From assembly GCF_050920415.1 (NCBI RefSeq), contig NZ_CP169309.1: a stretch of DNA of 64,000 bases; one strand, written 5' to 3'. The number at the start of each line of letters is the position of its first letter. Within the stretch, counting starts at the first letter, position 1. The translations under genes were made by a program, and so were the position numbers. Source of the DNA: Escherichia coli. Its GTDB lineage: Bacteria; Pseudomonadota; Gammaproteobacteria; Enterobacterales; Enterobacteriaceae. Shown in pieces: positions 1-30,600 of the stretch. Under the pieces are notes generated by a model. The model saw only the letters and a program-made list of their open reading frames with translations, did not search any database and had not been told where the DNA came from.

Positions 1-407
1 CTTTTGAACCAGTCAATGAACCTAAAAACATTATGTTCGAACATGTCCGAACGGAGTGTGAAAAAACTCCTGACCGTCACGAAGAAACCGACAAGGCATT
101 CGAGGAAATATTCTGGTGTGCAGGCATGCGGAAGGCCGGGAAGAAAAACGCAGCGTCGGCATTCAGAACACAGTTCAGGGAATGGCGTAAAACTACCAGG
201 GGTACGGCAAGCGAGTTTGCCACGATGCTGGCAGAAGACATCGCATGCAGGAATGGTAAGCAGTTCGGATTCGACAGGTTGTTACCATCGAGCTACCTGA
301 ACGGTCAACGCTGGAACGACGAGAAGCCAGAAACTATTCAACCACAATCCAAACCATCATCCGCAATCACCGTATCGAAAACTGGCTACGTGTTTTTCGA
401 CAGGTGA
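1..407 (+). CDS. Phage early/replication-module protein, C-terminal fragment (5' end outside window)
   Basis: Open frame runs from window start to TGA at 405-407; lies directly upstream of the primase-helicase; no family recognised. Confidence 0.4.
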   Translation, partial: FEPVNEPKNIMFEHVRTECEKTPDRHEETDKAFEEIFWCAGMRKAGKKNAASAFRTQFREWRKTTRGTASEFATMLAEDIACRNGKQFGFDRLLPSSYLNGQRWNDEKPETIQPQSKPSSAITVSKTGYVFFDR

Positions 408-409
408 AC

Positions 410-517
410 CATGAAATCAAAAATCAAATCGCTACTGGTCGCTGGTTATAACCACGGCTGGTTAAGTATTTCGTTTGTCGATTTCTGGTTTAAAAATCTC
501 AATCTGAGGGAATCATG
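410..517 (+). CDS. Small hypothetical protein (35 aa)
   Basis: ATG 5 nt after upstream stop with AGGTG-like SD; its stop overlaps primase start (ATGA); absent from ORF track because <60 aa. Confidence 0.3.
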
Positions 518-2395
518 ACGCCAAGTGAACTTAGCGACCTGCTTTGGGCGCAGGTTGACAGGGTGGCTCCGCACCTGTTGCCAAACGGCAAGAAAGAGGG
601 GCATGAGTGGGTTGCCGGTAACGTCAACGGTGACAAGGGAAACAGCCTTAAGGTCAACCTTAGCGGCAAGAAAAAATGGGCTGATTTCGCTGAGGGAGAC
701 GGCGGTGACATGCTTGATTTGTGGATGGCATGTCGTGGAATTAACCTGCATCAGGCTATGCAGGAAGCGAAAGCCTTTCTCGGTATCAAGGATGACGATC
801 ACCATTTCGATGCCAAACGTGAGAAGAAATTCTCCAGACCTGATCGCAAGAAAATCGCCCGCTACGTTACCAGAACAGAATCCCATCTTGAGTACCTGCA
901 ATCGCGTGGCATATCGCCAGAAGTCGTAAAGCGCTACGAGGTTGTCAGCGGCAAGGTGTGGAATGGAGAACGAGAACTTGATGCACTGGTGCTTCCGTAC
1001 AAACGCGATGGTGAGTTGTTGCAGGTCAAGCGAATCAGCACTGAGCGCCCGGACGGGAAGAAAGTCATTATGGCAGAAGGTGATTGTGAACCTTGTCTGT
1101 TCGGATGGCAGGCTCTGGACGCTGGCGTGAGGGCGGTTGTGCTTTGCGAAGGCGAAATTGATTGTATGAGCTATGCGCAATACGGCATCTCGGCGTTATC
1201 CGTGCCGTTTGGTGGAGGAAAAGGCGCTAAGCAGCAGTGGATTGAGTTTGAGTATCACAACCTCGACAGGTTTGAGGAAATATTCATCTCGATGGACGTT
1301 GATGATGTTGGTCGTGAAGCCGCAAGGGAAATCGCAAGCCGACTCGGTGAACATCGTTGCCGTCTTGTTACTCTGCCGTACAAAGACATCAACGAATGCC
1401 TGATGAACGGTGTTACCGAGGATGAAATCTGGCAGTACATCGGCACGGCATCCTACTTCGATCCTGAAGAACTCTACAGCGCGCGAGAGTTTTACCAGGA
1501 CACTATCAACGCTTTCTACGGCAAGCAGCAGTATCTATTTAATCCACCGTGGGAATCTCTGGCAGATAAATTCCAGTTCCGTGAGGCCGAGTTGACGCTG
1601 GTCAATGGTGTGAACGGTCACGGAAAAACGGAGGTTGTCGGGCATATGGCACTTGAGGCAATGCGTCAGGGTGTGAAGACGTGCATCGCGTCACTTGAGC
1701 TGAAGCCTGGTATTCTCCTTAAGCGCCTTACCCGTCAGGCAACGTGCTGCAAGATGCCGCCAGTGCTTGAAATTGACTCTGCATTTAAATTCTATGACGA
1801 AAGACTTTGGGTGTTTGGCCTGACCGGAACGGCGAAAGCCGACAGGTTGATCGAAATATTCGACTACGCTCGCCGCCGATACGGCATCCAGTTATTCATC
1901 ATCGACAGCCTGATGAAATGCGGCATAGGTGACGATGACTATAACGGGCAGAAAGCATTTGTTGACTCGATTTGCGACTTCAAAAACAAAACAAACTCCC
2001 ACGTCATTCTCGTTACTCACTCCAGAAAAGGAGACAGCGAAGAAAAACCAACCGGGAAAATGGACGTAAAAGGCTCTGGAGCGATAACAGACCTGACAGA
2101 CAACCTTTTCATCATCTGGCGTAACAAGGCTCGCGAGAGAGCGTTACAGAGAGTTCAGAGTGGTGAAAAGATGTCAGAGAAGGACGAACAGCTACTGGCA
2201 TCTCCGGCATCTGTTTTGATGCTTGAAAAACAACGTAACGGCGAAGGTTGGGAAGGTGGTGTCCCGTTGTTCCTTGACGAGCAATCGCACCAGTTCCTGC
2301 AACTTGAATCAGGATCGCCTTATAGCTACATCGCCAATATGCCGAAATCGGAATATGACGAGGCGTGGCGACAGGAAAACGTGACGGAGTATTAA
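515..2395 (+). CDS. Phage DNA primase/helicase (Toprim domain fused to DnaB/T7-gp4-like helicase)
   Basis: Toprim acidic motifs (CEGEID, DVDDVG), Walker A GVNGHGKTE, Walker B-like LFIIDSL; 626 aa. Confidence 0.8.
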   Translation: MTPSELSDLLWAQVDRVAPHLLPNGKKEGHEWVAGNVNGDKGNSLKVNLSGKKKWADFAEGDGGDMLDLWMACRGINLHQAMQEAKAFLGIKDDDHHFDAKREKKFSRPDRKKIARYVTRTESHLEYLQSRGISPEVVKRYEVVSGKVWNGERELDALVLPYKRDGELLQVKRISTERPDGKKVIMAEGDCEPCLFGWQALDAGVRAVVLCEGEIDCMSYAQYGISALSVPFGGGKGAKQQWIEFEYHNLDRFEEIFISMDVDDVGREAAREIASRLGEHRCRLVTLPYKDINECLMNGVTEDEIWQYIGTASYFDPEELYSAREFYQDTINAFYGKQQYLFNPPWESLADKFQFREAELTLVNGVNGHGKTEVVGHMALEAMRQGVKTCIASLELKPGILLKRLTRQATCCKMPPVLEIDSAFKFYDERLWVFGLTGTAKADRLIEIFDYARRRYGIQLFIIDSLMKCGIGDDDYNGQKAFVDSICDFKNKTNSHVILVTHSRKGDSEEKPTGKMDVKGSGAITDLTDNLFIIWRNKARERALQRVQSGEKMSEKDEQLLASPASVLMLEKQRNGEGWEGGVPLFLDEQSHQFLQLESGSPYSYIANMPKSEYDEAWRQENVTEY

Positions 2396-2422
2396 ATGAC
2401 CATCTACATCACTGAGCTAATA

Positions 2423-2455
2423 AAAGGCCTGCTGGTAATCGCAGGCCTTTTTATT
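2423..2455 (+). terminator. Rho-independent terminator between primase-helicase and ninB
   Basis: Hairpin AAAGGCCTGC-(loop)-GCAGGCCTTT followed by T-run. Confidence 0.6.
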
Positions 2456-2472
2456 TGGGGGAGAGGGAAGTC

Positions 2473-2913
2473 ATGAAAAAACTAACCTTTGAAATTCGAT
2501 CTCCGGCACATCAGCAAAACGCTATTCACGCGGTACAGCAAATCCTTCCAGACCCAACCAAGCCAATCGTAGTGATCATTCAGGAGCGCAACCGCAGCTT
2601 AGACCAGAATCGGAAGCTTTGGGCTTGCCTTGGTGACGTCTCTCGTCAGGTTGAATGGCATGGGCGTTGGCTGGATGCAGAAAGCTGGAAGTGTGTGTTT
2701 ACCGCAGCATTAAAGCAGCAGGATGTTGTTCCTAACCTTGCCGGGAATGGCTTTGTGGTAATAGGCCAGTCAACCAGCAGGATGCGTGTAGGCGAATTTG
2801 CGGAGCTATTAGAGCTTATACAGGCATTCGGTACAGAGCGTGGCGTTAAGTGGTCAGACGAAGCGCGACTGGCTCTCGAATGGAAAGCGCGATGGGGAGA
2901 TCGGGCTGCATGA
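2473..2913 (+). CDS. ninB: NinB recombination protein
   Basis: Translation MKKLTFEIRSPAHQQNAIHAVQQ... matches lambda NinB as recalled; start at internal ATG 2473 with GGGAGAGGGAAG SD. Confidence 0.9.
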   Translation: MKKLTFEIRSPAHQQNAIHAVQQILPDPTKPIVVIIQERNRSLDQNRKLWACLGDVSRQVEWHGRWLDAESWKCVFTAALKQQDVVPNLAGNGFVVIGQSTSRMRVGEFAELLELIQAFGTERGVKWSDEARLALEWKARWGDRAA

Positions 2914-3437
2914 CTATCAAATCAAATACGCCAGCACACGACAAGGACTGCTGGCAAACGCCGCTTTGGCTTTTTGATGCACTGGATATTGAGTTTGGAT
3001 TCTGGCTGGATTCGGCAGCGAGCGACAAAAACGCTCTGTGCGCTCACTGGCTAACTGAGGCCGACGACGCGCTCAATTCTGAGTGGGTAAGCCACGGTGC
3101 AATCTGGAATAACCCACCGTACAGCAATATCAGGCCGTGGGTGGAAAAAGCCGCTGAGCAGTGTATACAACAGCGACAGACGGTAGTGATGCTTGTGCCA
3201 GAGGATATGTCAGTCGGATGGTTCAGCAAGGCTCTGGAGAGTGTCGACGAAGTTCGTATTATCACTGATGGACGGATTAATTTTATCGAACCATCGACAG
3301 GGCTAGAGAAGAAGGGAAACAGCAAAGGTTCCATGCTGCTGATTTGGCGACCGTTCATCAGTCCTCGACGGATGTTTACTACCGTATCCAAAGCGGCATT
3401 GATGGCGATCGGGCAGGGCGTCAGGAGGGCGGCATGA
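2910..3437 (+). CDS. Phage DNA N6-adenine methyltransferase (Dam-family)
   Basis: NPPY catalytic motif (..[11 protein letters not shown]..); start overlaps ninB stop (ATGA); occupies the ninC/ninD position. Confidence 0.8.
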
Positions 3438-22749: not shown

Positions 22750-23070
22750 TTAGCGGTTGATGGTTGCTTTTTTCGGGTCATACCATCTCGGCCATTCTTT
22801 CAGGAATGGGAATGAGTCGGGAGCGTGGTTCTTTTTGTACGATTTAAGCAGCCTTAACCGCTCTATCGCACACTCATAAACCTCTTGTTGCCCTGTAGTC
22901 ATCTCGGTCCATGAAAGGTGATCCATTGATAAGACAACGTTTTCAGCTTCTTTTATGAGGGCGTTTTTATTTCTCACCGCAGCAGCATGGCTGACAGAGC
23001 AATCCTGCCATATTCTTAAAAGCCAAATAGCTAAGCAGATAAAAAAAATGGTAGATAGCGATATATACAC
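22750..23070 (-). CDS. Hypothetical single-pass membrane protein (about 106 aa)
   Basis: GTG start 5 nt after AAGGAGG; N-terminal TM segment YISLSTIFFICLAIWLLRIW; longer 178-aa ORF in the track would overlap the + strand gene. Confidence 0.45.
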   Translation of the reverse strand: MYISLSTIFFICLAIWLLRIWQDCSVSHAAAVRNKNALIKEAENVVLSMDHLSWTEMTTGQQEVYECAIERLRLLKSYKKNHAPDSFPFLKEWPRWYDPKKATINR

Positions 23071-23100
23071 ACCAACCTCCTTAGTTTTGAGCAGGATACC

Positions 23101-23466
23101 ATGAAAAAAGTTAACATTGGAAACGTACCAAAGATGCTCGTACCGCTCTTTGAGAGCGGTACAATTGTGTTTTGTAGAGACTTTCCAGAATGGCAACGCC
23201 TGCATCAAAAACTTGGCGTTGACGTGCATGACTCGGACGCCAACGGAGCGTCTCATACAATGAGTAGCGAGAATGGTGTTTTGCATGTGATAGGCGTGTT
23301 CAATGGCAAACTATCTACTATTGCCCATGAGTGCGCTCACATGGCATTCGATATCTGCTCAAGGGTAGGTGTTGATGTTGAACCAGGAAGAGCCAACGAG
23401 ACTTACTGCTACTTAATGAGCAGGCTTGTTGAGTTCTGCGAGCGACATATCAAAAAGCCGGAGTGA
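23101..23466 (+). CDS. Putative zinc metallopeptidase (HExxH motif; ImmA/IrrE- or SprT-like)
   Basis: 121 aa; HECAH motif at residues 76-80. Confidence 0.45.
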   Translation: MKKVNIGNVPKMLVPLFESGTIVFCRDFPEWQRLHQKLGVDVHDSDANGASHTMSSENGVLHVIGVFNGKLSTIAHECAHMAFDICSRVGVDVEPGRANETYCYLMSRLVEFCERHIKKPE

Positions 23467-23479
23467 CCCGGCTTGATTA

Positions 23480-23659
23480 TTACTTTTTGCTGTCTGGAGT
23501 TCGCTTATCCAATACCCAGCCATGACCTGGCTTTGTTGTTGGTGGAAGCCTTTCGTTGTCCTTGACGGTGGCAAAATTGTCTTTCTTACCGCCGCGTGGG
23601 CCAACTTCTTGGTATATTCCGCCGTTTTTTCCTGTGTTTTCACCTGGTTTTTTCGCCAT
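23480..23659 (-). CDS. Hypothetical small Gly/Lys-rich protein (59 aa)
   Basis: ATG preceded by GAGG; MAKKPGENTGKNGGIYQEVGPRGGKKDNFATVKDNERLPPTTKPGHGWVLDKRTPDSKK. Confidence 0.45.
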   Translation of the reverse strand: MAKKPGENTGKNGGIYQEVGPRGGKKDNFATVKDNERLPPTTKPGHGWVLDKRTPDSKK

Positions 23660-23758
23660 GATATACCTCAACATACACCCGTTATTGGGCGATTAAATAT
23701 TGATCTCATTTTATAAGTAGTCAATATGGCCCAGGTAAATGCAAAAATTAACTCACCG

Positions 23759-24010
23759 TCAGGTGGTTTTTTTGTACAAATCCTTCAGCGTATCAAACAC
23801 CATCTTCTTAACAAGATCTGACTGCTCATCAGCGAGTCGTTCTGCATCGTCACGATATCCAGTCACAGGCGATGGTTTTGATAGAGCATCTTGGACGATT
23901 TGCAACAATTCTGAGTTCATTGATCTACCATTTGACTCTGCTCTGTATTTTAATTTTTCTCTTACTTCCAAAGGCATGCGGAAGTTAAAGTGCGGATCGT
24001 CTCTAGCCAT
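23759..24010 (-). CDS. mnt: Mnt repressor (ribbon-helix-helix)
   Basis: 83 aa; matches recalled P22 Mnt (MARDDPHFNFRMP.EVREKLK.RAE.NGRSMNSELLQIV..). Confidence 0.9.
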   Translation of the reverse strand: MARDDPHFNFRMPLEVREKLKYRAESNGRSMNSELLQIVQDALSKPSPVTGYRDDAERLADEQSDLVKKMVFDTLKDLYKKTT

Positions 24011-24033
24011 GCCATCACTCCAAGTTAGTATCT

Positions 24034-24291
24034 TTAACTTTCGTCTTTATTGTTGCCATACATGCATTTCAACTTCTCAACATCATGTTCAAGATCTATC
24101 AATCGTGATGCTATAGTTGCAAGGTCTAGTGCTTGAATGTGTTTATTTTTTTCGGTCCATGCTTCAAGTGCCGCGACCATCTCAGCATTTAATGAACGAG
24201 AATTAGCCTCAGCCAGTTCAATAAGACGTTCCTTTATCTCTACAGGAAGCCTCAGATTCACTTGAGGGTTTTTGTACTTACGATCAGACAT
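24034..24291 (-). CDS. Arc/Mnt-family ribbon-helix-helix regulator (second RHH protein)
   Basis: RHH N-terminus PQVNLRLPVEIKERLIELAEANSRSLNAEMV; directly upstream of mnt on the same strand. Confidence 0.7.
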   Translation of the reverse strand: MSDRKYKNPQVNLRLPVEIKERLIELAEANSRSLNAEMVAALEAWTEKNKHIQALDLATIASRLIDLEHDVEKLKCMYGNNKDES

Positions 24292-24396
24292 CGGCACATC
24301 CTGAATAATTTTTTACCACAGGATATGTAGGTATCTATTGACTATCAATGCGTACCTAAATACTATGTATGCGTACCACATACAACGGAGGATGCA

Positions 24397-24537
24397 ATGA
24401 AGGTAAAAACACTGCGTATGCCAGAGAAGTTAGAAAAAATCCTTGAAGAGAAAGCAAAGGAAGAGTGTCGCTCATTTAGCGCAGAAGTAATTAAACGGGT
24501 GATGGACAGCCTGAAGAGAGATGGGGTGGCGATATGA
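24397..24537 (+). CDS. arc: Arc-like repressor (46 aa RHH)
   Basis: MKVKTLRMPEKLEKILEEKAKEECRSFSAEVIKRVMDSLKRDG resembles P22 Arc as recalled; divergent from mnt. Confidence 0.7.
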   Translation: MKVKTLRMPEKLEKILEEKAKEECRSFSAEVIKRVMDSLKRDGVAI

Positions 24538-24716
24538 ATAAAGAAGATGGCTTTAAGTGCTCCTTCTGCTGAAAGCCTCAGCATGAATGTGCAATGTTGA
24601 TTCGCGCTAAAGCAGAGATATTTATCTGTAATGGTTGTGTATCTCTTTGCGTTGAAGCGATGGGGAAAGAGTTAAATTCTAGAAAAACAATGTTAGATGT
24701 GAGCATAAAACAGTGA
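24534..24716 (+). pseudogene. ClpX-type C4 zinc-finger small protein with in-frame TGA at 24570-24572
   Basis: MNKEDGFKCSFC-TGA-KPQHECAMLIRAKAEIFICNGCVSLCVEAMGKE.. parallels ClpX N-terminal zinc finger (CSFCGK...ICDECV..LC); TGA sits where ClpX has Gly. Confidence 0.5.
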
Positions 24717-24778
24717 AGCCCCAACTGCGGTAACAGTCAGGGCTTCGGTATCAACAAAACTTACGAGGTATTATTGAT

Positions 24779-25348
24779 ATGTCAAGCTTAGCAAAGTCAA
24801 CTGTAAATTGCACTAATAGCATCATCATTTCTGACGTCAAGATTCATATGGATTCAGAGGGTCGTTACTCGCTTAATGACCTTCATGTAGCGTCTGGAAA
24901 GGAGGAAAAACATCAGCCAGCTTTCTTCATGCGTAGAAATGAAACTATTGAATTGATTAATGAAATTTTTAATTCTGCGGATATGCAGAATAAGAATCCC
25001 GTCATTTCTAAGAAAGGTAGATATGGTGGAACATACGTGTGCAAGGAGCTTGTTTACTCCTACGCCATGTGGATTAGCGCAGCATTTGCGCTGAAGGTTA
25101 TCCGCGCATATGACGCAATGGTTACTGCCACACAAGAGAGGAAGGCTATTGGCGGTAAAACTTCAGTAGCTGAACGCACGCCGCTACGCGATGCAGTAAA
25201 CATGCTGGTAGGAAAGAAAGGACTTCGCTATGACGATGCATACAATATGGTTCATCAGCGTTTTGGTATTGACAGCATTGATGAACTTTCAATTGAACAA
25301 ATCCCGCTGGCCGTAGAGTACATCCACAGGGTAGTGCTTGAAGGTGAG
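24779..25348 (+). pseudogene. ant: Antirepressor Ant, 5' part (KilA-N domain), interrupted by IS2
   Basis: KilA-N-like N-terminus; reading frame runs into IS2 left end, which supplies the stop (TAG at 25349-25351). Confidence 0.75.
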
Positions 25349-25439
25349 TAGACTGGCCCCCTGAATCTCCAGACAACCAGTATCACTTAAATAAGTGATA
25401 GTCTTAATACTAGTTTTTAGACTAGTCATTGGAGAACAG

Positions 25440-25805
25440 ATGATTGATGTCTTAGGGCCGGAGAAACGCAGACGGCGTACCACACAGGAAAAGATCGCAA
25501 TTGTTCAGCAGAGCTTTGAACCGGGGATGACGGTCTCCCTCGTTGCCCGGCAACATGGTGTAGCAGCCAGCCAGTTATTTCTCTGGCGTAAGCAATACCA
25601 GGAAGGAAGTCTTACTGCTGTCGCCGCCGGAGAACAGGTTGTTCCTGCCTCTGAACTTGCTGCCGCCATGAAGCAGATTAAAGAACTCCAGCGCCTGCTC
25701 GGCAAGAAAACGATGGAAAATGAACTCCTCAAAGAAGCCGTTGAATATGGACGGGCAAAAAAGTGGATAGCGCACGCGCCCTTATTGCCCGGGGATGGGG
25801 AGTAA
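25440..25805 (+). CDS. insC: IS2 transposase OrfA
   Basis: [41 protein letters not shown].. matches InsC as recalled. Confidence 0.9.
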
Positions 25806-26668
25806 GCTTAGTCAGCCGTTGTCTCCGGGTGTCGCGTGCGCAGTTGCACGTCATTCTCAGACGAACCGATGACTGGATGGATGGCCGCCGCAGTCGTCAC
25901 ACTGATGATACGGATGTGCTTCTCCGTATACACCATGTTATCGGAGAGCTGCCCACGTATGGTTATCGTCGGGTATGGGCGCTGCTTCGCAGACAGGCAG
26001 AACTTGATGGTATGCCTGCGATCAATGCCAAACGTGTTTACCGGATCATGCGCCAGAATGCGCTGTTGCTTGAGCGAAAACCTGCTGTACCGCCATCGAA
26101 ACGGGCACATACAGGCAGAGTGGCCGTGAAAGAAAGCAATCAGCGATGGTGCTCTGACGGGTTCGAGTTCTGCTGTGATAACGGAGAGAGACTGCGTGTC
26201 ACGTTCGCGCTGGACTGCTGTGATCGTGAGGCACTGCACTGGGCGGTGACTACTGGCGGCTTCAACAGTGAAACAGTACAGGACGTCATGCTGGGAGCGG
26301 TGGAACGCCGCTTCGGCGACGATCTTCCGTCGTCTCCAGTGGAGTGGCTGACGGATAATGGTTCATGCTACCGGGCTAATGAAACACGCCAGTTCGCCCG
26401 GATGTTGGGACTTGAACCGAAGAACACGGCGGTGCGGAGTCCGGAGAGTAACGGAATAGCAGAGAGCTTCGTGAAAACGATAAAGCGTGACTACATCAGT
26501 ATCATGCCCAAACCAGACGGGTTAACGGCAGCAAAGAACCTTGCAGAGGCGTTCGAGCATTATAACGAATGGCATCCGCATAGTGCGCTGGGTTATCGCT
26601 CGCCACGGGAATATCTGCGGCAGCGGGCTTGTAATGGGTTAAGTGATAACAGATGTCTGGAAATATAG
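25763..26668 (+). CDS. insD: IS2 transposase OrfB (overlaps orfA in -1 frame)
   Basis: 301 aa; DDE transposase matching InsD as recalled. Confidence 0.9.
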
Positions 26669-26679
26669 GGGCAAATCCA

Positions 26680-27005
26680 GTGAGTTCATTGGCAAACAAG
26701 AGAAGAAAACCAACGAGCTTTCTGCAAAAGAAGCAAACAGCCTTGTATGGTTATGGGATTATGCCAACCGCTCACAGGCATTATTCCGCGAATTGTATCC
26801 GGCATTAAAACAAATTCAATCGAACTATTCCGGCAGATGTCATGACTGCGGTTATGAGTTCTCCCGTATTATCGATATAGCGAGAGACGTTTTAATTAAT
26901 CACACACGAGATGTTGATATCAATGAGCCAGACGGACCAACGAATCTTTCCGCATGGATGAGACTTAAGAATAAAGAATTACCTCCTTCAGTACATAATT
27001 ACTGA
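26680..27005 (+). pseudogene. ant: Antirepressor Ant, 3' part
   Basis: After removing IS2 and one TSD copy (1336 bp) this frame joins 24779..25348 in frame, reconstructing a 296-aa protein. Confidence 0.7.
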
Positions 27006-27105: not shown

Positions 27106-29063
27106 ATGACAGACATTACAGCCAATGTTGTAGTGAGCATGCCTTCGCAACTCTTTACTATGGCCCGCTCTTTTAAAGCCGTAGCTAATGGTAAAATTTA
27201 TATCGGTAAAATTGACACTGACCCGGTAAATCCTGAAAACCAGATTCAGGTTTATGTAGAGAACGAAGACGGCTCTCACGTTCCTGTTTCGCAACCAATC
27301 ATCATTAACGCTGCTGGATATCCGGTATATAACGGACAGATTGCCAAATTCGTAACTGTGCAAGGCCATTCTATGGCTGTATATGATGCGTATGGTGCAC
27401 AGCAGTTCTATTTTCCTAATGTGCTGAAGTATGACCCTGATCAGTTTAAGCAGCAGTTAGAAAGCGATGCTGATGGAATGGGAGATGCATTAGTTACAGT
27501 TAAACAACCGTACACTGGTGCTACTTCTATTTCACAGCACATTAAAAATTCACAGGCTATAAGTGTTATTGATTTTGGCGCTACAATTGACGGAACGCTT
27601 CACCCTTTAAGCGAGATATTTTCAACACTATCAGCCGCTCAGATGGTATATCCATTTGTTTCATCTCTATCTCAATCTGTTGATTATGCTGCGCTTCAGT
27701 CCGCATGTAACACGGGAAAAACAGTGCTTATTCCAAAGGGAACTGGTTACTATAATTCAACTATTTTTCTGAAAAACTCCGTCAGGATTGTTGGAGAGGG
27801 AACTGATACAATAAATAGAGCGCAATCATTTATGTCTATTGTTGGTAATATTTCAGCCTTTGCTTTAGATCAAGGTGATTCACTATCGACAAAAATGATT
27901 CAGATTTTTATTGATGGTCTTTATATTTTCTATGATCCAGGAACCACACCAACGAATCCTGAAGATGATGGTGGGAAAATTGCATTTAATTTCTACTCGA
28001 CAATTCCAAATTCAACAAGCTTGGAAATGTCTGAAATTAAAAACTGTACAGTTCATGGTGCATGGTCATGCTTTAATGATCAGACTGGCACATACTTGAC
28101 AAAACTTACGAATGTGTGGGCCAGAAACTGCCATAATGGTTTTACAAAAGGAACTGGCACTACCATTCTGATGGAAAGATGTTATACATCTGGATGTATA
28201 TCACCATATCAGTTTGGTTCTGTCTTTGCAGCTACAATGATTAACTGTGCCATGGATGGATCAAATATTTCGTTAAACGCAGGTTCGCTTGGTGGGGCTG
28301 GCGTTCATGTTCTTAACACACATAGTTTTAACATTATTGGTTTTGATGCGGAGGGTAACACCATCTCTACAGATGGTTATGGAGAGGCAGCACTATTCCA
28401 TTTCGAAAATAGTAGTGGTGGCATTTCTGGCCTGACTGCACATCAGAACAGCATGCGAAGTGTTGCGCCAAGTGATGCTGGTGTAGTTTCCTACATCAGG
28501 GCGTCAGGTAGCAGCGATGTAAAATTGAGTCATCAGAAGATGATTTATCTGACACCAACACAGTTGCATATACTGGGTCTGGGTATCCCATCATGCTACA
28601 TGCAACTGACACAGCTAAAATAAGCGTCTTTAATAGCAGATTCAGGGCGACTACCACTGGTACCCCTGTCTTAAGTACGCTAAGTACTGGTGATGTATCA
28701 TGGTATGACTGCCCTAAAAAAACAGGACTTATCGTAGATGGTTATTCACAAATAACATCTAAGGAAGGATTGCAAACATCATGCTTCTATACCAGTAAAG
28801 GCTCTACTGCTGTTGCTGAAAATACTCCGACAACACTTTTCTCTCTACCAGATTCGCAAGGTACTTACATTATTAGCGTATGGGGGGCTGGAAGCGGAGA
28901 AAATTACGCATCTACACAACTGGCAATGTATGATGGAGATAAGCTAATTCTTGTTGCGTTAAAAATAGCAGCATTTCTTAGTTTTTCAGCAACAGGGAGA
29001 ATTGTAACCATTACAAGCCAGGGCACAGGCACTTTTAATTGGACCTACACAAAAATAGGTTAA
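27106..29063 (+). pseudogene. Tailspike with P22-like head-binding N-terminus and divergent receptor-binding domain; apparent 1-nt frameshift between 28512 and 28590
   Basis: N-terminus [11 protein letters not shown]...[33 protein letters not shown] matches P22 gp9 as recalled; frame 27106..28623 and frame 28512..29063 overlap, together about 652 codons. Confidence 0.65.
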
Positions 29064-29206: not shown

Positions 29207-30364
29207 TCACTCCACCTTTTCATCAATCCAATCCGCCCACCACTGCATCATTTCTCTGCGCTTATCGAGATACTGAGCATGGTTGTAAATTCCGCGCACA
29301 GATCCGCCGTTGGCATGTGCCAGTTGCACTTCAATAGCATCAGCAGGCCATTCGTGCTCGTTCATAATCGTGCTGAATTCATGCCTGAATCCGTGACCGC
29401 TTTCCAGACCTTCATAGCCGATTTGTTTGATCACAAGCAGTACCGCGTTCTCGCAGATTGGCTTCTTCTTATCGTTGCGCCCGGCAAAAACAAACTCTGA
29501 TACTGGTTTGGTGATTGAGCTTAGCGTAGTGAGAAGTTCAACCACCTGGTCCGACATCGGGACAACATGAATCTTGCGTCCCTTCATCACACTGGCGTCG
29601 ATAGTGATAATCCTGTTTTCAAAATCGACGTTCTTCCATTGCATGGAACGAAGCTCTTTCGTTCTTAGGGCTGTGTAGCGTAAAACTTTGGTCGCAATGA
29701 GCGATACGATACTTCCTGAAAATGTTGCCAGTGCTTTGTTGAATGCAGGGATCTGGTCTGCAGGAAGAAACGGGAAGTTCTTCTTGCGGTATCCCTTCAT
29801 GGCGTCAGCAAGGTCAGGTGCCGGGTTATATTTAGCCCTTCCGGTGACAATAGCGTAACGGAAAACCTCGCCGCATCTTCTGCGTGCTTTGTTGGCTCGC
29901 TCCATTGCACCGCGATCTTCAAATCTGCGGATTACTTCCAGAAGTTGCATCGGCTCAATATCCTGAATTTCAAGGCTGCCGATGATAGGTAAAATGTCGT
30001 CATCAAACATTTTGGCAAGTTCAGTTGCATAGCCTACTGACCAGACTTGCTTCTTGTGCTCGTACCATTCCTTGTAAATCGCACTAAAGGAATTGTTGTT
30101 AGACGAAGCCTTTTTCGCCTTTACCGGATCGATACCAACCGAGATGTCTTTCCTCGCAGTCCATGCTTTATCCCTTGCCTCCTGCAAAGTCATAAGCGGA
30201 TATTTTCCGACGGTCAGGATTTTCTCCTTACCGTCAATCTTGTAGCGAAGCTGCCATACCTTTTTCCCTGACACAGGGACATAAAGGTACAGGCCATTAC
30301 CATCGAGAAGGCGGTATGGTTTTTCTTTCGGCTTTGCTGCTTCAATCTGCTTAACGGTGAGCAT
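29207..30364 (-). CDS. intS: Tyrosine integrase (IntS-like)
   Basis: MLTVKQIEAAKPKEKPYRLLDGNGLYLYVP.. matches recalled K-12 IntS; start taken at Met13 of the listed ORF. Confidence 0.9.
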   Translation of the reverse strand: MLTVKQIEAAKPKEKPYRLLDGNGLYLYVPVSGKKVWQLRYKIDGKEKILTVGKYPLMTLQEARDKAWTARKDISVGIDPVKAKKASSNNNSFSAIYKEWYEHKKQVWSVGYATELAKMFDDDILPIIGSLEIQDIEPMQLLEVIRRFEDRGAMERANKARRRCGEVFRYAIVTGRAKYNPAPDLADAMKGYRKKNFPFLPADQIPAFNKALATFSGSIVSLIATKVLRYTALRTKELRSMQWKNVDFENRIITIDASVMKGRKIHVVPMSDQVVELLTTLSSITKPVSEFVFAGRNDKKKPICENAVLLVIKQIGYEGLESGHGFRHEFSTIMNEHEWPADAIEVQLAHANGGSVRGIYNHAQYLDKRREMMQWWADWIDEKVE

Positions 30365-30525
30365 GGGTAAAAATCCGGTGGGTAAAATTATTTTATCCAC
30401 TTTTTACCCGTCATGGTGTGCGGCTGTCAACGATCTGACGCGAACCATGACGAACTGTGAATCTACGGAAGGCTTGATATTCAGGGGATTTTGCGGACTG
30501 GTACGGATGGGAGCGAACTGATAAA

Positions 30526-30600
30526 TGGTGTCCCCTGCAGGAATCGAACCTGCAATTAGCCCTTAGGAGGGGCTCGTTATATCCATTTAACTAAGAGGAC
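30526..30600 (-). tRNA. argW: tRNA-Arg (argW), prophage integration site
   Basis: Reverse complement reads GTCCTCTTAGTTAAATGGATATAACGAGCCCCTCCTAAGGGCTAATTGCAGGTTCGATTCCTGCAGGGGACACCA. Confidence 0.95.

Follow-up and report, generated by a model that had tools for sequence, protein, structure and literature searches.

The window analysed here is a stretch of 64,000 nucleotides from Escherichia coli (contig NZ_CP169309.1 of assembly GCF_050920415.1) that covers the right-hand two thirds of a prophage of the P22 family (replication genes, Q, head and ejection genes, tailspike), in which three genes encoding ribbon-helix-helix (RHH) proteins lie around one short control region. This locus is read as the immI region, or 'ant moron', of a CUS-3-like member of the P22 family integrated at argW, and as a mosaic of two immunity modules; as a whole, the trans-acting role discussed below for one of the repressors included, this reading is judged about equally likely to be right or wrong. 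The middle gene, encoding an 85-aa Mnt analogue (hereafter RHH85), would be the module's own repressor, and the P22-type mnt gene placed behind it is an add-on; the roles are thus the reverse of those proposed in the first-pass annotation, in which the middle protein figured as an 'extra' layer upon a Mnt/Arc switch.

The immI region is the interval between a gp16-like gene and the tailspike gene (Villafane et al. 2008, PMC2629481). Here it comprises, from left to right, a terminator, an orf59a-like gene, P22-type mnt, a 23-nt junction, RHH85, the control region, an Arc analogue, a small open reading frame (ORF), sar and ant. A tRNA-Arg(CCU) gene is found at 30526-30600 beside yfdC, and in MFDS1022581, an E. 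coli chromosome of close kinship, the corresponding argW site is empty. Phage CUS-3 shares both this integration site and the order of the genes. The integrase gene falls within 29207-30600, directly between the tailspike and tRNA-Arg(CCU) (argW), again as in CUS-3.

The presence of three RHH regulators, put forward by the first-pass annotation, is borne out: all three genes are intact in the ORF list, and their products, taken from left to right, score 98.1, 40.0 and 35.0 bits against the Arc family PF03869, above its cut-off of 20.4 bits, the first of them also matching Repressor_Mnt (PF11423) with 63.6 bits.

23759..24010, minus strand: P22-type mnt, 83 aa, intact, without promoter or operator of its own; Pfam Arc and Repressor_Mnt
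24034..24291, minus strand: RHH85, 85 aa, RHH domain and C-terminal heptad helix, putative cognate maintenance repressor; Pfam Arc, 3.4e-10
24397..24537, plus strand: Arc analogue, 46 aa, also in CUS-3; Pfam Arc, 1.2e-08; Arc family protein in RefSeq

RHH85 and its control region

The RHH85 gene, which lies upstream of mnt and is co-directional with it, as had been noted before, starts at an ATG at 24291, which an AGGA Shine-Dalgarno sequence precedes by 7 nt; MS(D/E)R is the N-terminus of 43 homologues, and the length of 87 aa given in the first-pass annotation corresponds to an upstream GTG at 24297. The breadth of the family (141 clusters at 90% identity, across Enterobacterales) and a ratio of nonsynonymous to synonymous substitution rates (dN/dS) of 0.02-0.11 argue that this is not a chance ORF. 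Nor is it a duplicated mnt fragment, a case that the earlier annotation had considered, since it encodes a full-length protein that has no more than 32% of its residues in common with the neighbouring Mnt; this protein shares 45% identity with the Mnt of phage ST64T over nearly its full length. Its 'longer C-terminal tail' is longer only in comparison with Arc; in size the protein equals Mnt (85 versus 83 aa).

The closest PDB sequence match of RHH85 is 1mnt, in an alignment reaching residue 71, and Arc chains match as well. Residues R4, Y6, K7, P9, Q10 and N12-P16 are invariant in the 43 homologues; the reading strand, PQVNLRLP, resembles Arc's PQFNLRWP, not that of Mnt. The AlphaFold model (mean predicted local distance difference test score, pLDDT, 78) contains helices at 17-29, 34-48 and 57-79, and a Foldseek search with the monomer model returns the Arc fold with a probability of 1.0 but an E value of 0.04 at best, a result that bears on the fold and not on tetramer formation. 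As read from the sequence, the last helix carries a hydrophobic heptad pattern (L57, I60, L64, L67, V71, L74, Y78) conserved among the homologues; it fits a coiled-coil oligomerisation helix like that of Mnt, and RHH85 may accordingly be a tetramer.

It is its distribution that marks RHH85 as the probable maintenance repressor of the module. In Salmonella phage SEN22, in E. coli O104:H4 C227-11, in EC6, in Klebsiella and in Morganella the same control region is flanked by RHH85 and by no other Mnt-size gene, which is difficult to reconcile with an 'extra' layer; in these elements the order is constant (a Mnt-like gene, about 100 bp, an Arc-like gene of 46-53 aa, ant), and the Klebsiella and Morganella carriers are tailed prophages with tape-measure genes, not P22-like ones. 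Likewise, RHH85 together with the control region occurs in 140 of 5,426 complete E. coli genomes, and the junction between mnt and RHH85 in 44 of the same 5,426; the solo occurrences and these counts together lead to the assignment. The layout is also of Mnt type, RHH85 being divergent from arc and ant over a short shared control region.

The divergent intergenic region, 24292-24396, measures 105 bp. The first-pass annotation placed in it both promoters and the operators; a predicted promoter pair is indeed found there, and the operators, which lie there as well, are candidates.

24318..24385: 68-bp ultraconserved core, with both predicted promoters and the candidate operators inside
24338..24366, plus strand: predicted rightward promoter (arc, ant), TTGACT, 17-nt spacer, TACTAT; consensus match inside the conserved core
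24320..24348, minus strand: predicted leftward promoter (RHH85, mnt, orf59a), TTGATA, 17-nt spacer, TATCCT; consensus match
24324..24362: candidate operator 1, a 39-bp inverted repeat with 18-nt arms centred on both -35 hexamers, unique in the window
24366..24384: candidate operator 2, TGTATGcgtaccaCATACA, a 19-bp near-palindrome, unique in the window

The conservation of the core is seen directly: it differs from the Salmonella, Klebsiella and Morganella versions by 2-4 mismatches in 68 (94-97% identity), against 50-66% of third codon positions in the adjacent gene. Counterparts of the core stand at about 2409-2478 in loci L003, L011 and L013, where the flanking genes are synonymously saturated. 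The -35 hexamers of the two predicted promoters overlap by 1 bp (24343), and no convincing leftward promoter fully overlapping the rightward one, in the manner of P22, was found there by eye. Candidate operator 1 belongs also to a pair of tandem 21-bp direct units (24331-24372); candidate operator 2 begins with the final base of the rightward -10 hexamer and runs over the predicted start site, the position taken by O_mnt in P22. The assignment of operators to proteins by covariation proved uninformative, as neither the N-terminus of RHH85 nor the core varies, and as the Arc-like protein of Morganella differs while the core there is almost the same.

These components make up a complete alternative immI, composed of RHH85, the 68-bp core, the two candidate operators, the Arc analogue, sar and ant. 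By analogy with P22, RHH85 would sit as a tetramer at the rightward start site, keeping ant off in the lysogen and favouring its own leftward promoter, and once infection has occurred the Arc analogue would lower the activity of both promoters; the pairing of each protein with a repeat is what we infer here.

The P22-type mnt gene and its junction

The Mnt encoded in the window is 94% identical to that of P22, and its DNA-reading beta-strand, RDDPHFNFRMP, is the same. In a blastn map a P22-like block (23067-24029, 96.7% identity) is followed, from about 24030 to 24545, by CUS-3/SEN22-like sequence; alignment with P22 and with three P22-type control regions of E. coli sets the mosaic breakpoint at 24029/24030, directly after CCAAGTTAGT and 19 nt upstream of the mnt ATG. 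Beyond this position, P22 itself runs into the -35 hexamer of P_ant, O_arc and O_mnt.

24011..24033, minus strand: junction and leader, 23 nt, of which about 19 nt come from the leader of P22 mnt, GGAG Shine-Dalgarno sequence included, and abut the RHH85 stop codon

Because the joint falls about 20 nt upstream of the start codon, P22-type mnt has kept its Shine-Dalgarno sequence and lost P_mnt, O_mnt and O_arc. The junction, TA(A/G)AGATACTAACTTGG(A/G)GTGATGGCATG, is common to the window, CUS-3, E50 and seven further loci, and varies by 1-2 nt over the ten. The absence of the P22 operators is as directly visible as the junction: with up to 3 mismatches allowed, O_mnt (AGGTCCACGGTGGACCT) is absent from the 64-kb window and from the complete CUS-3 genome, and O_arc from the 64-kb window; in the search of the window, the loci and CUS-3, no P22 operator is present in the stacked loci (those in which mnt follows RHH85), exact copies being confined to P22-type control regions. 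A consensus and terminator scan of the minus strand between RHH85 and mnt found no promoter-like or terminator-like site. Its own promoter being lost, mnt would be expressible only as the second cistron of the RHH85 operon, and the simplest reading is that RHH85, mnt and orf59a are co-transcribed from the leftward promoter to the P22-type mnt terminator. On this sequence evidence P22-type mnt is an add-on, and its product has no target in cis.

This arrangement was known from earlier deposits. Phage CUS-3 (CP000711, 2007) is annotated with two adjacent 'mnt' genes, the upstream one (ABQ88385) encoding a protein 100% identical to RHH85, and in RefSeq the corresponding position of UTI89, IHE3034 and APEC O18, among many further strains, carries 'Arc family DNA-binding protein' three times. 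The CUS-3-type stacked immI is therefore already known, and the window holds a further, partly decayed copy. According to Villafane et al. (2008, PMC2629481), CUS-3 apparently lacks arc; an intact 46-aa arc is nevertheless found in it (L001, 3614-3754), inside the 'boundary sequence' feature bsq2, and the inference of 2008 is explained by its not being annotated in the GenBank record. The exact RHH85 protein occurs in 3,332 sample blocks of a public collection, and in 8 of the 8 distinct contexts read a PF11423-positive gene follows 23 nt downstream.

Ten stacked loci hold five distinct mnt alleles, which differ by 17-53 positions per 225 nt with dN/dS of 0.06-0.25; the five are intact, and across the first 47 residues they hardly vary, three positions being variable. 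Over the same ten loci RHH85 varies by only 0-3 nt, and the step in divergence at the junction indicates that the mnt alleles have been replaced by recombination. The low dN/dS of the stacked alleles was discarded as proof of function, since the alleles were probably imported from contexts under selection.

Stacking also extends to a third Mnt type. Locus L021 (E. coli GCA_964045765.1, 2495-4072) contains four intact RHH genes, three of them of Mnt type: an arc of a third type (46 aa) and the gene for a third Mnt, of 79 aa, diverge from one another, and the latter is followed by RHH85, P22-type mnt and a ClpP-like gene. The third Mnt comes with its own arc and control region; RHH85 keeps just 17 nt of its leader there, and the junction between the third type and RHH85 has a GGTAAA microhomology. 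The same junction is present in E. coli MS 196-1 (NZ_CP146681, near 3138305), the one case in the 5,426 complete E. coli genomes.

Co-directional genes of the kind typical of lysogen cargo lie directly behind Mnt-like genes elsewhere, namely GmrSD_N and HEPN genes in Morganella (L013-L015, 2766-4636), a YafO-toxin-like gene in the CUS-3 type (L017, 3573-4576) and the ClpP-like protease gene (L021, 3536-4072). Defence or accessory genes placed in this slot seem to be expressed from the lysogenic immI promoter.

Neighbouring genes and related phages

The remaining features of the locus are the following.

23455..23474, minus strand: intrinsic terminator ending the leftward operon, homologue of the P22 mnt terminator (L002, 1553-1575); terminator scan
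23480..23674, minus strand: orf59a-like small gene, last of the leftward operon, within the P22-like block at the position of P22 orf59a; ORF list
24534..24716, plus strand: ClpX zinc-finger-like small ORF, its ATGA start overlapping the arc stop, likely a pseudogene; translation
24712..24777, minus strand: sar antisense RNA gene; Rfam RF00262 (62.8 bits, gathering score 43, E value 4e-12)
24779..25348, plus strand: N-terminal part of ant (KilA-N), cut by IS2; Pfam KilA-N, 8.4e-20
25349..26679, plus strand: IS2, 1331 bp, within ant; boundary sequences, terminal inverted repeats, orfA and orfB ORFs
26685..27005, plus strand: C-terminal part of ant (P22_AR_C); Pfam P22_AR_C, 1.8e-29

The slot between arc and ant is variable in gene content (compare also L001, 3751-3954, in CUS-3, and L010, 2321-2542): CUS-3 and E50 have an unannotated 67-aa C4 zinc-ribbon ORF in it, and MLI121 an unrelated ORF of 73 aa. 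The small ORF of the window, with the motif CSFC...CNGC, is interrupted at codon 13, a Gly position in ClpX, by an in-frame TGA, and its zf-C4_ClpX score of 20.3 bits is below the Pfam cut-off. As in immI regions of P22 type, a sar gene is present opposite the ribosome-binding site of ant, and the terminator scan places its hairpin at 24715-24746. The insertion in ant, identified as IS2 by its InsC and InsD sequences, is flanked by a 5-bp target duplication, GTGAG (25344-25348 and 26680-26684); once the insertion and one copy of the duplication are removed, ant becomes a single frame of KilA-N and P22_AR_C. No functional ant is thus found in this copy, and although its three repressor genes are intact, their regulated output is dead. 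The prophage is probably defective. The tailspike gene occupies two overlapping frames, 27106-28623 and 28593-29063 (split at about 28600), likely owing to a frameshift.

The closest relative of the locus is CUS-3, an E. coli K1 phage (GenBank CP000711) with counterparts in the prophages of UTI89, IHE3034 and APEC. The two have in common the identical 85-aa protein, the 23-nt junction to P22-type mnt, the control region, the 46-aa arc, the sar terminator, argW integration with int beside the tailspike and, over 23784-24545, 93% DNA identity. They differ in that the mnt of the window is nearer to P22's (18 differences in 234 nt) than to that of CUS-3 (41), that the left flank is P22-like (orf59a) where CUS-3 has a YafO-like gene and hkcB, that the small ORF is a ClpX-zinc-finger-like pseudogene where CUS-3 has the 67-aa C4 ORF, that ant has a KilA-N N-terminus where CUS-3 has P22_AR_N, that ant is broken by IS2, and that the tailspike is not an endosialidase.

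The plan of P22 immI is retained (a leftward Mnt-size RHH gene, a rightward small Arc, then sar and ant, overlapping divergent promoters, which in the window are predicted, and one palindrome at the rightward start site), and mnt, orf59a and the terminator are 96.7% identical to those of P22. Unlike in P22, however, an unrelated 68-bp core takes the place of P_ant, P_mnt, O_arc and O_mnt, the predicted promoters overlap at the -35 hexamers only, with start sites about 60 bp apart, whereas those of P22 overlap almost completely, and there is one RHH gene more; in addition, the working Mnt analogue has the Arc-like strand PQVNLRLP and its 32% identity to Mnt.

SEN22 (KT630648) represents the solo form of the RHH85 module: its Mnt-like protein is 85% identical, 66 of the 68 core bases agree and the N-terminus of the Arc analogue, MKVKTLRMPE, is the same, but it has no second mnt, and the genes downstream of its Mnt-like gene are convergent (HicA-like). 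The ant gene of this Salmonella phage is likewise interrupted by a transposon, and such recurrent inactivation of ant in prophages may be more than coincidence.

Phages L, ST64T and ST104, finally, resemble the window in having retained a Mnt-type gene without its arc and ant partners, and published views leave it undecided whether this lone mnt has taken on a new function or is a remnant (PMC8022706, PMC2629481). In these phages, however, it is the sole RHH gene and there is no active immI, whereas the operator-less mnt of the window stands behind an active, heterotypic module.

Possible roles of the second repressor

The most attractive function for P22-type Mnt is immunity in trans, a role that we infer, as we do co-transcription: made from the second cistron, Mnt would switch off the ant promoter of incoming or co-resident phages with a P22-type immI, and the lysogen would gain a second immI immunity specificity against antirepressor-driven induction. 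Potential targets exist, since P22-type control regions with exact O_mnt and O_arc circulate in E. coli prophages (EC_T6, O111:H2 08-3342, MLI121), and Ant of P22 can inactivate repressors that belong to other phages (Lemire et al. 2011, PMC3121763). These targets, the cross-activity of Ant, the lysogen cargo found elsewhere in the position behind Mnt-like genes, the intact alleles and the triple stack, taken together, favour the trans role, a neutral relic being nearly as likely. In its general form, which is offered tentatively and as possible rather than probable, the proposal would be that P22-family prophages collect Mnt repressors, an old mnt being kept promoterless but with its ribosome-binding site intact behind a new module, as stackable cross-immunity in trans that would silence the antirepressor genes of foreign phages with those immI types and so guard the resident prophage against induction by superinfecting relatives; a single lysogenic promoter would then express two Mnt specificities in the CUS-3 type and in the window, and three in MS 196-1 and L021.

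The neutral explanation, itself a serious contender though short of probable, holds that P22-type mnt is a leftover from a replacement in which all sequence right of the mnt leader gave way to an RHH85-arc-ant module; RHH85 would still be the working repressor, and mnt, maybe co-transcribed, would not have decayed because it is merely 252 bp long. Several observations speak for such an origin. The mnt promoter and operators are lost; two thirds of the RHH85 modules (about 96 E. coli genomes) are without a second mnt; most of the 44 carriers are apparently near-identical CUS-3-type prophages (UTI89-type), not cases of independent retention; one stacked allele (L018) has a frameshifted C-terminus; and the immI of the window is visibly decaying. 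The second, third and fourth of these also weigh against the trans role, as does the low dN/dS of the alleles in so far as it may stem from selection in earlier P22-type contexts. A 'remnant' reading has also been offered for the lone mnt of phage L (Zaworski et al. 2020, PMC8022706). Other observations count against the picture drawn above of the RHH85 module itself: RHH85 has no match to the PF11423 tetramerisation model in Pfam, the promoter scan performs at background frequency (4 found, 3.5 expected), and the Morganella Arc-like protein combines a different N-terminus with nearly the same core, which clouds the assignment of operators to proteins. A relic does not readily account, on the other hand, for five diverged alleles all intact behind one junction with their DNA-binding half nearly invariant, for the recurrence of stacking with a third Mnt type, all copies intact, or for the preservation of the Shine-Dalgarno sequence at each junction.

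That the window instead holds a true three-repressor switch, in which its Mnt binds the local region non-canonically or mixes oligomers with RHH85 and so provides a third input to ant and arc, is improbable. Such a switch would suit the co-location and probable co-expression of mnt with RHH85, and the repeats do exceed the need of two proteins (39-bp and 19-bp inverted repeats, 21-bp direct units); yet the same core occurs without P22-type Mnt in SEN22, Klebsiella, Morganella and the E. coli genomes with the solo module, the best O_mnt match in the local control region has 8 mismatches in 17, and the C-terminal helices of RHH85 and the window Mnt are unrelated in sequence. Least credible of all, and very improbable, is the model of the first-pass annotation, a P22-like Mnt/Arc switch with the 85-aa protein as an added layer possibly controlling the accessory cassette, for which the three RHH genes and the adjacent accessory genes can be adduced: the operators and promoters needed by Mnt and P22 Arc are absent, the local Arc belongs to another type, of 46 aa, which goes along with RHH85, the control core has RHH85 as its conserved partner, and neither candidate operator recurs in the vicinity of the accessory genes. 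The lone 9-mer match, at 50730, is far outside the prophage and was set aside as due to chance; the sole tie of immI to the cassette would be a shared transcript reaching through orf59a to the terminator (23455-23474).

The weight of the finding lies in the stacking pattern and in the strongly conserved control element, rather than in the count of three genes. The record is corrected in three respects: CUS-3-type immI regions do carry arc, contrary to the 2008 comparison (PMC2629481); the upstream 'mnt' is a distinct and widespread Mnt analogue with its own extremely conserved 68-bp control element; and the P22-type mnt behind RHH85 is without operator. If Mnt does act in trans, the solitary mnt genes of phages L and ST64T, on which the literature is undecided (PMC8022706), would gain a function, the finding would bear on mutual induction and silencing among co-infecting temperate phages, and immI would amount to a form of immunity in which one prophage can build up several specificities.

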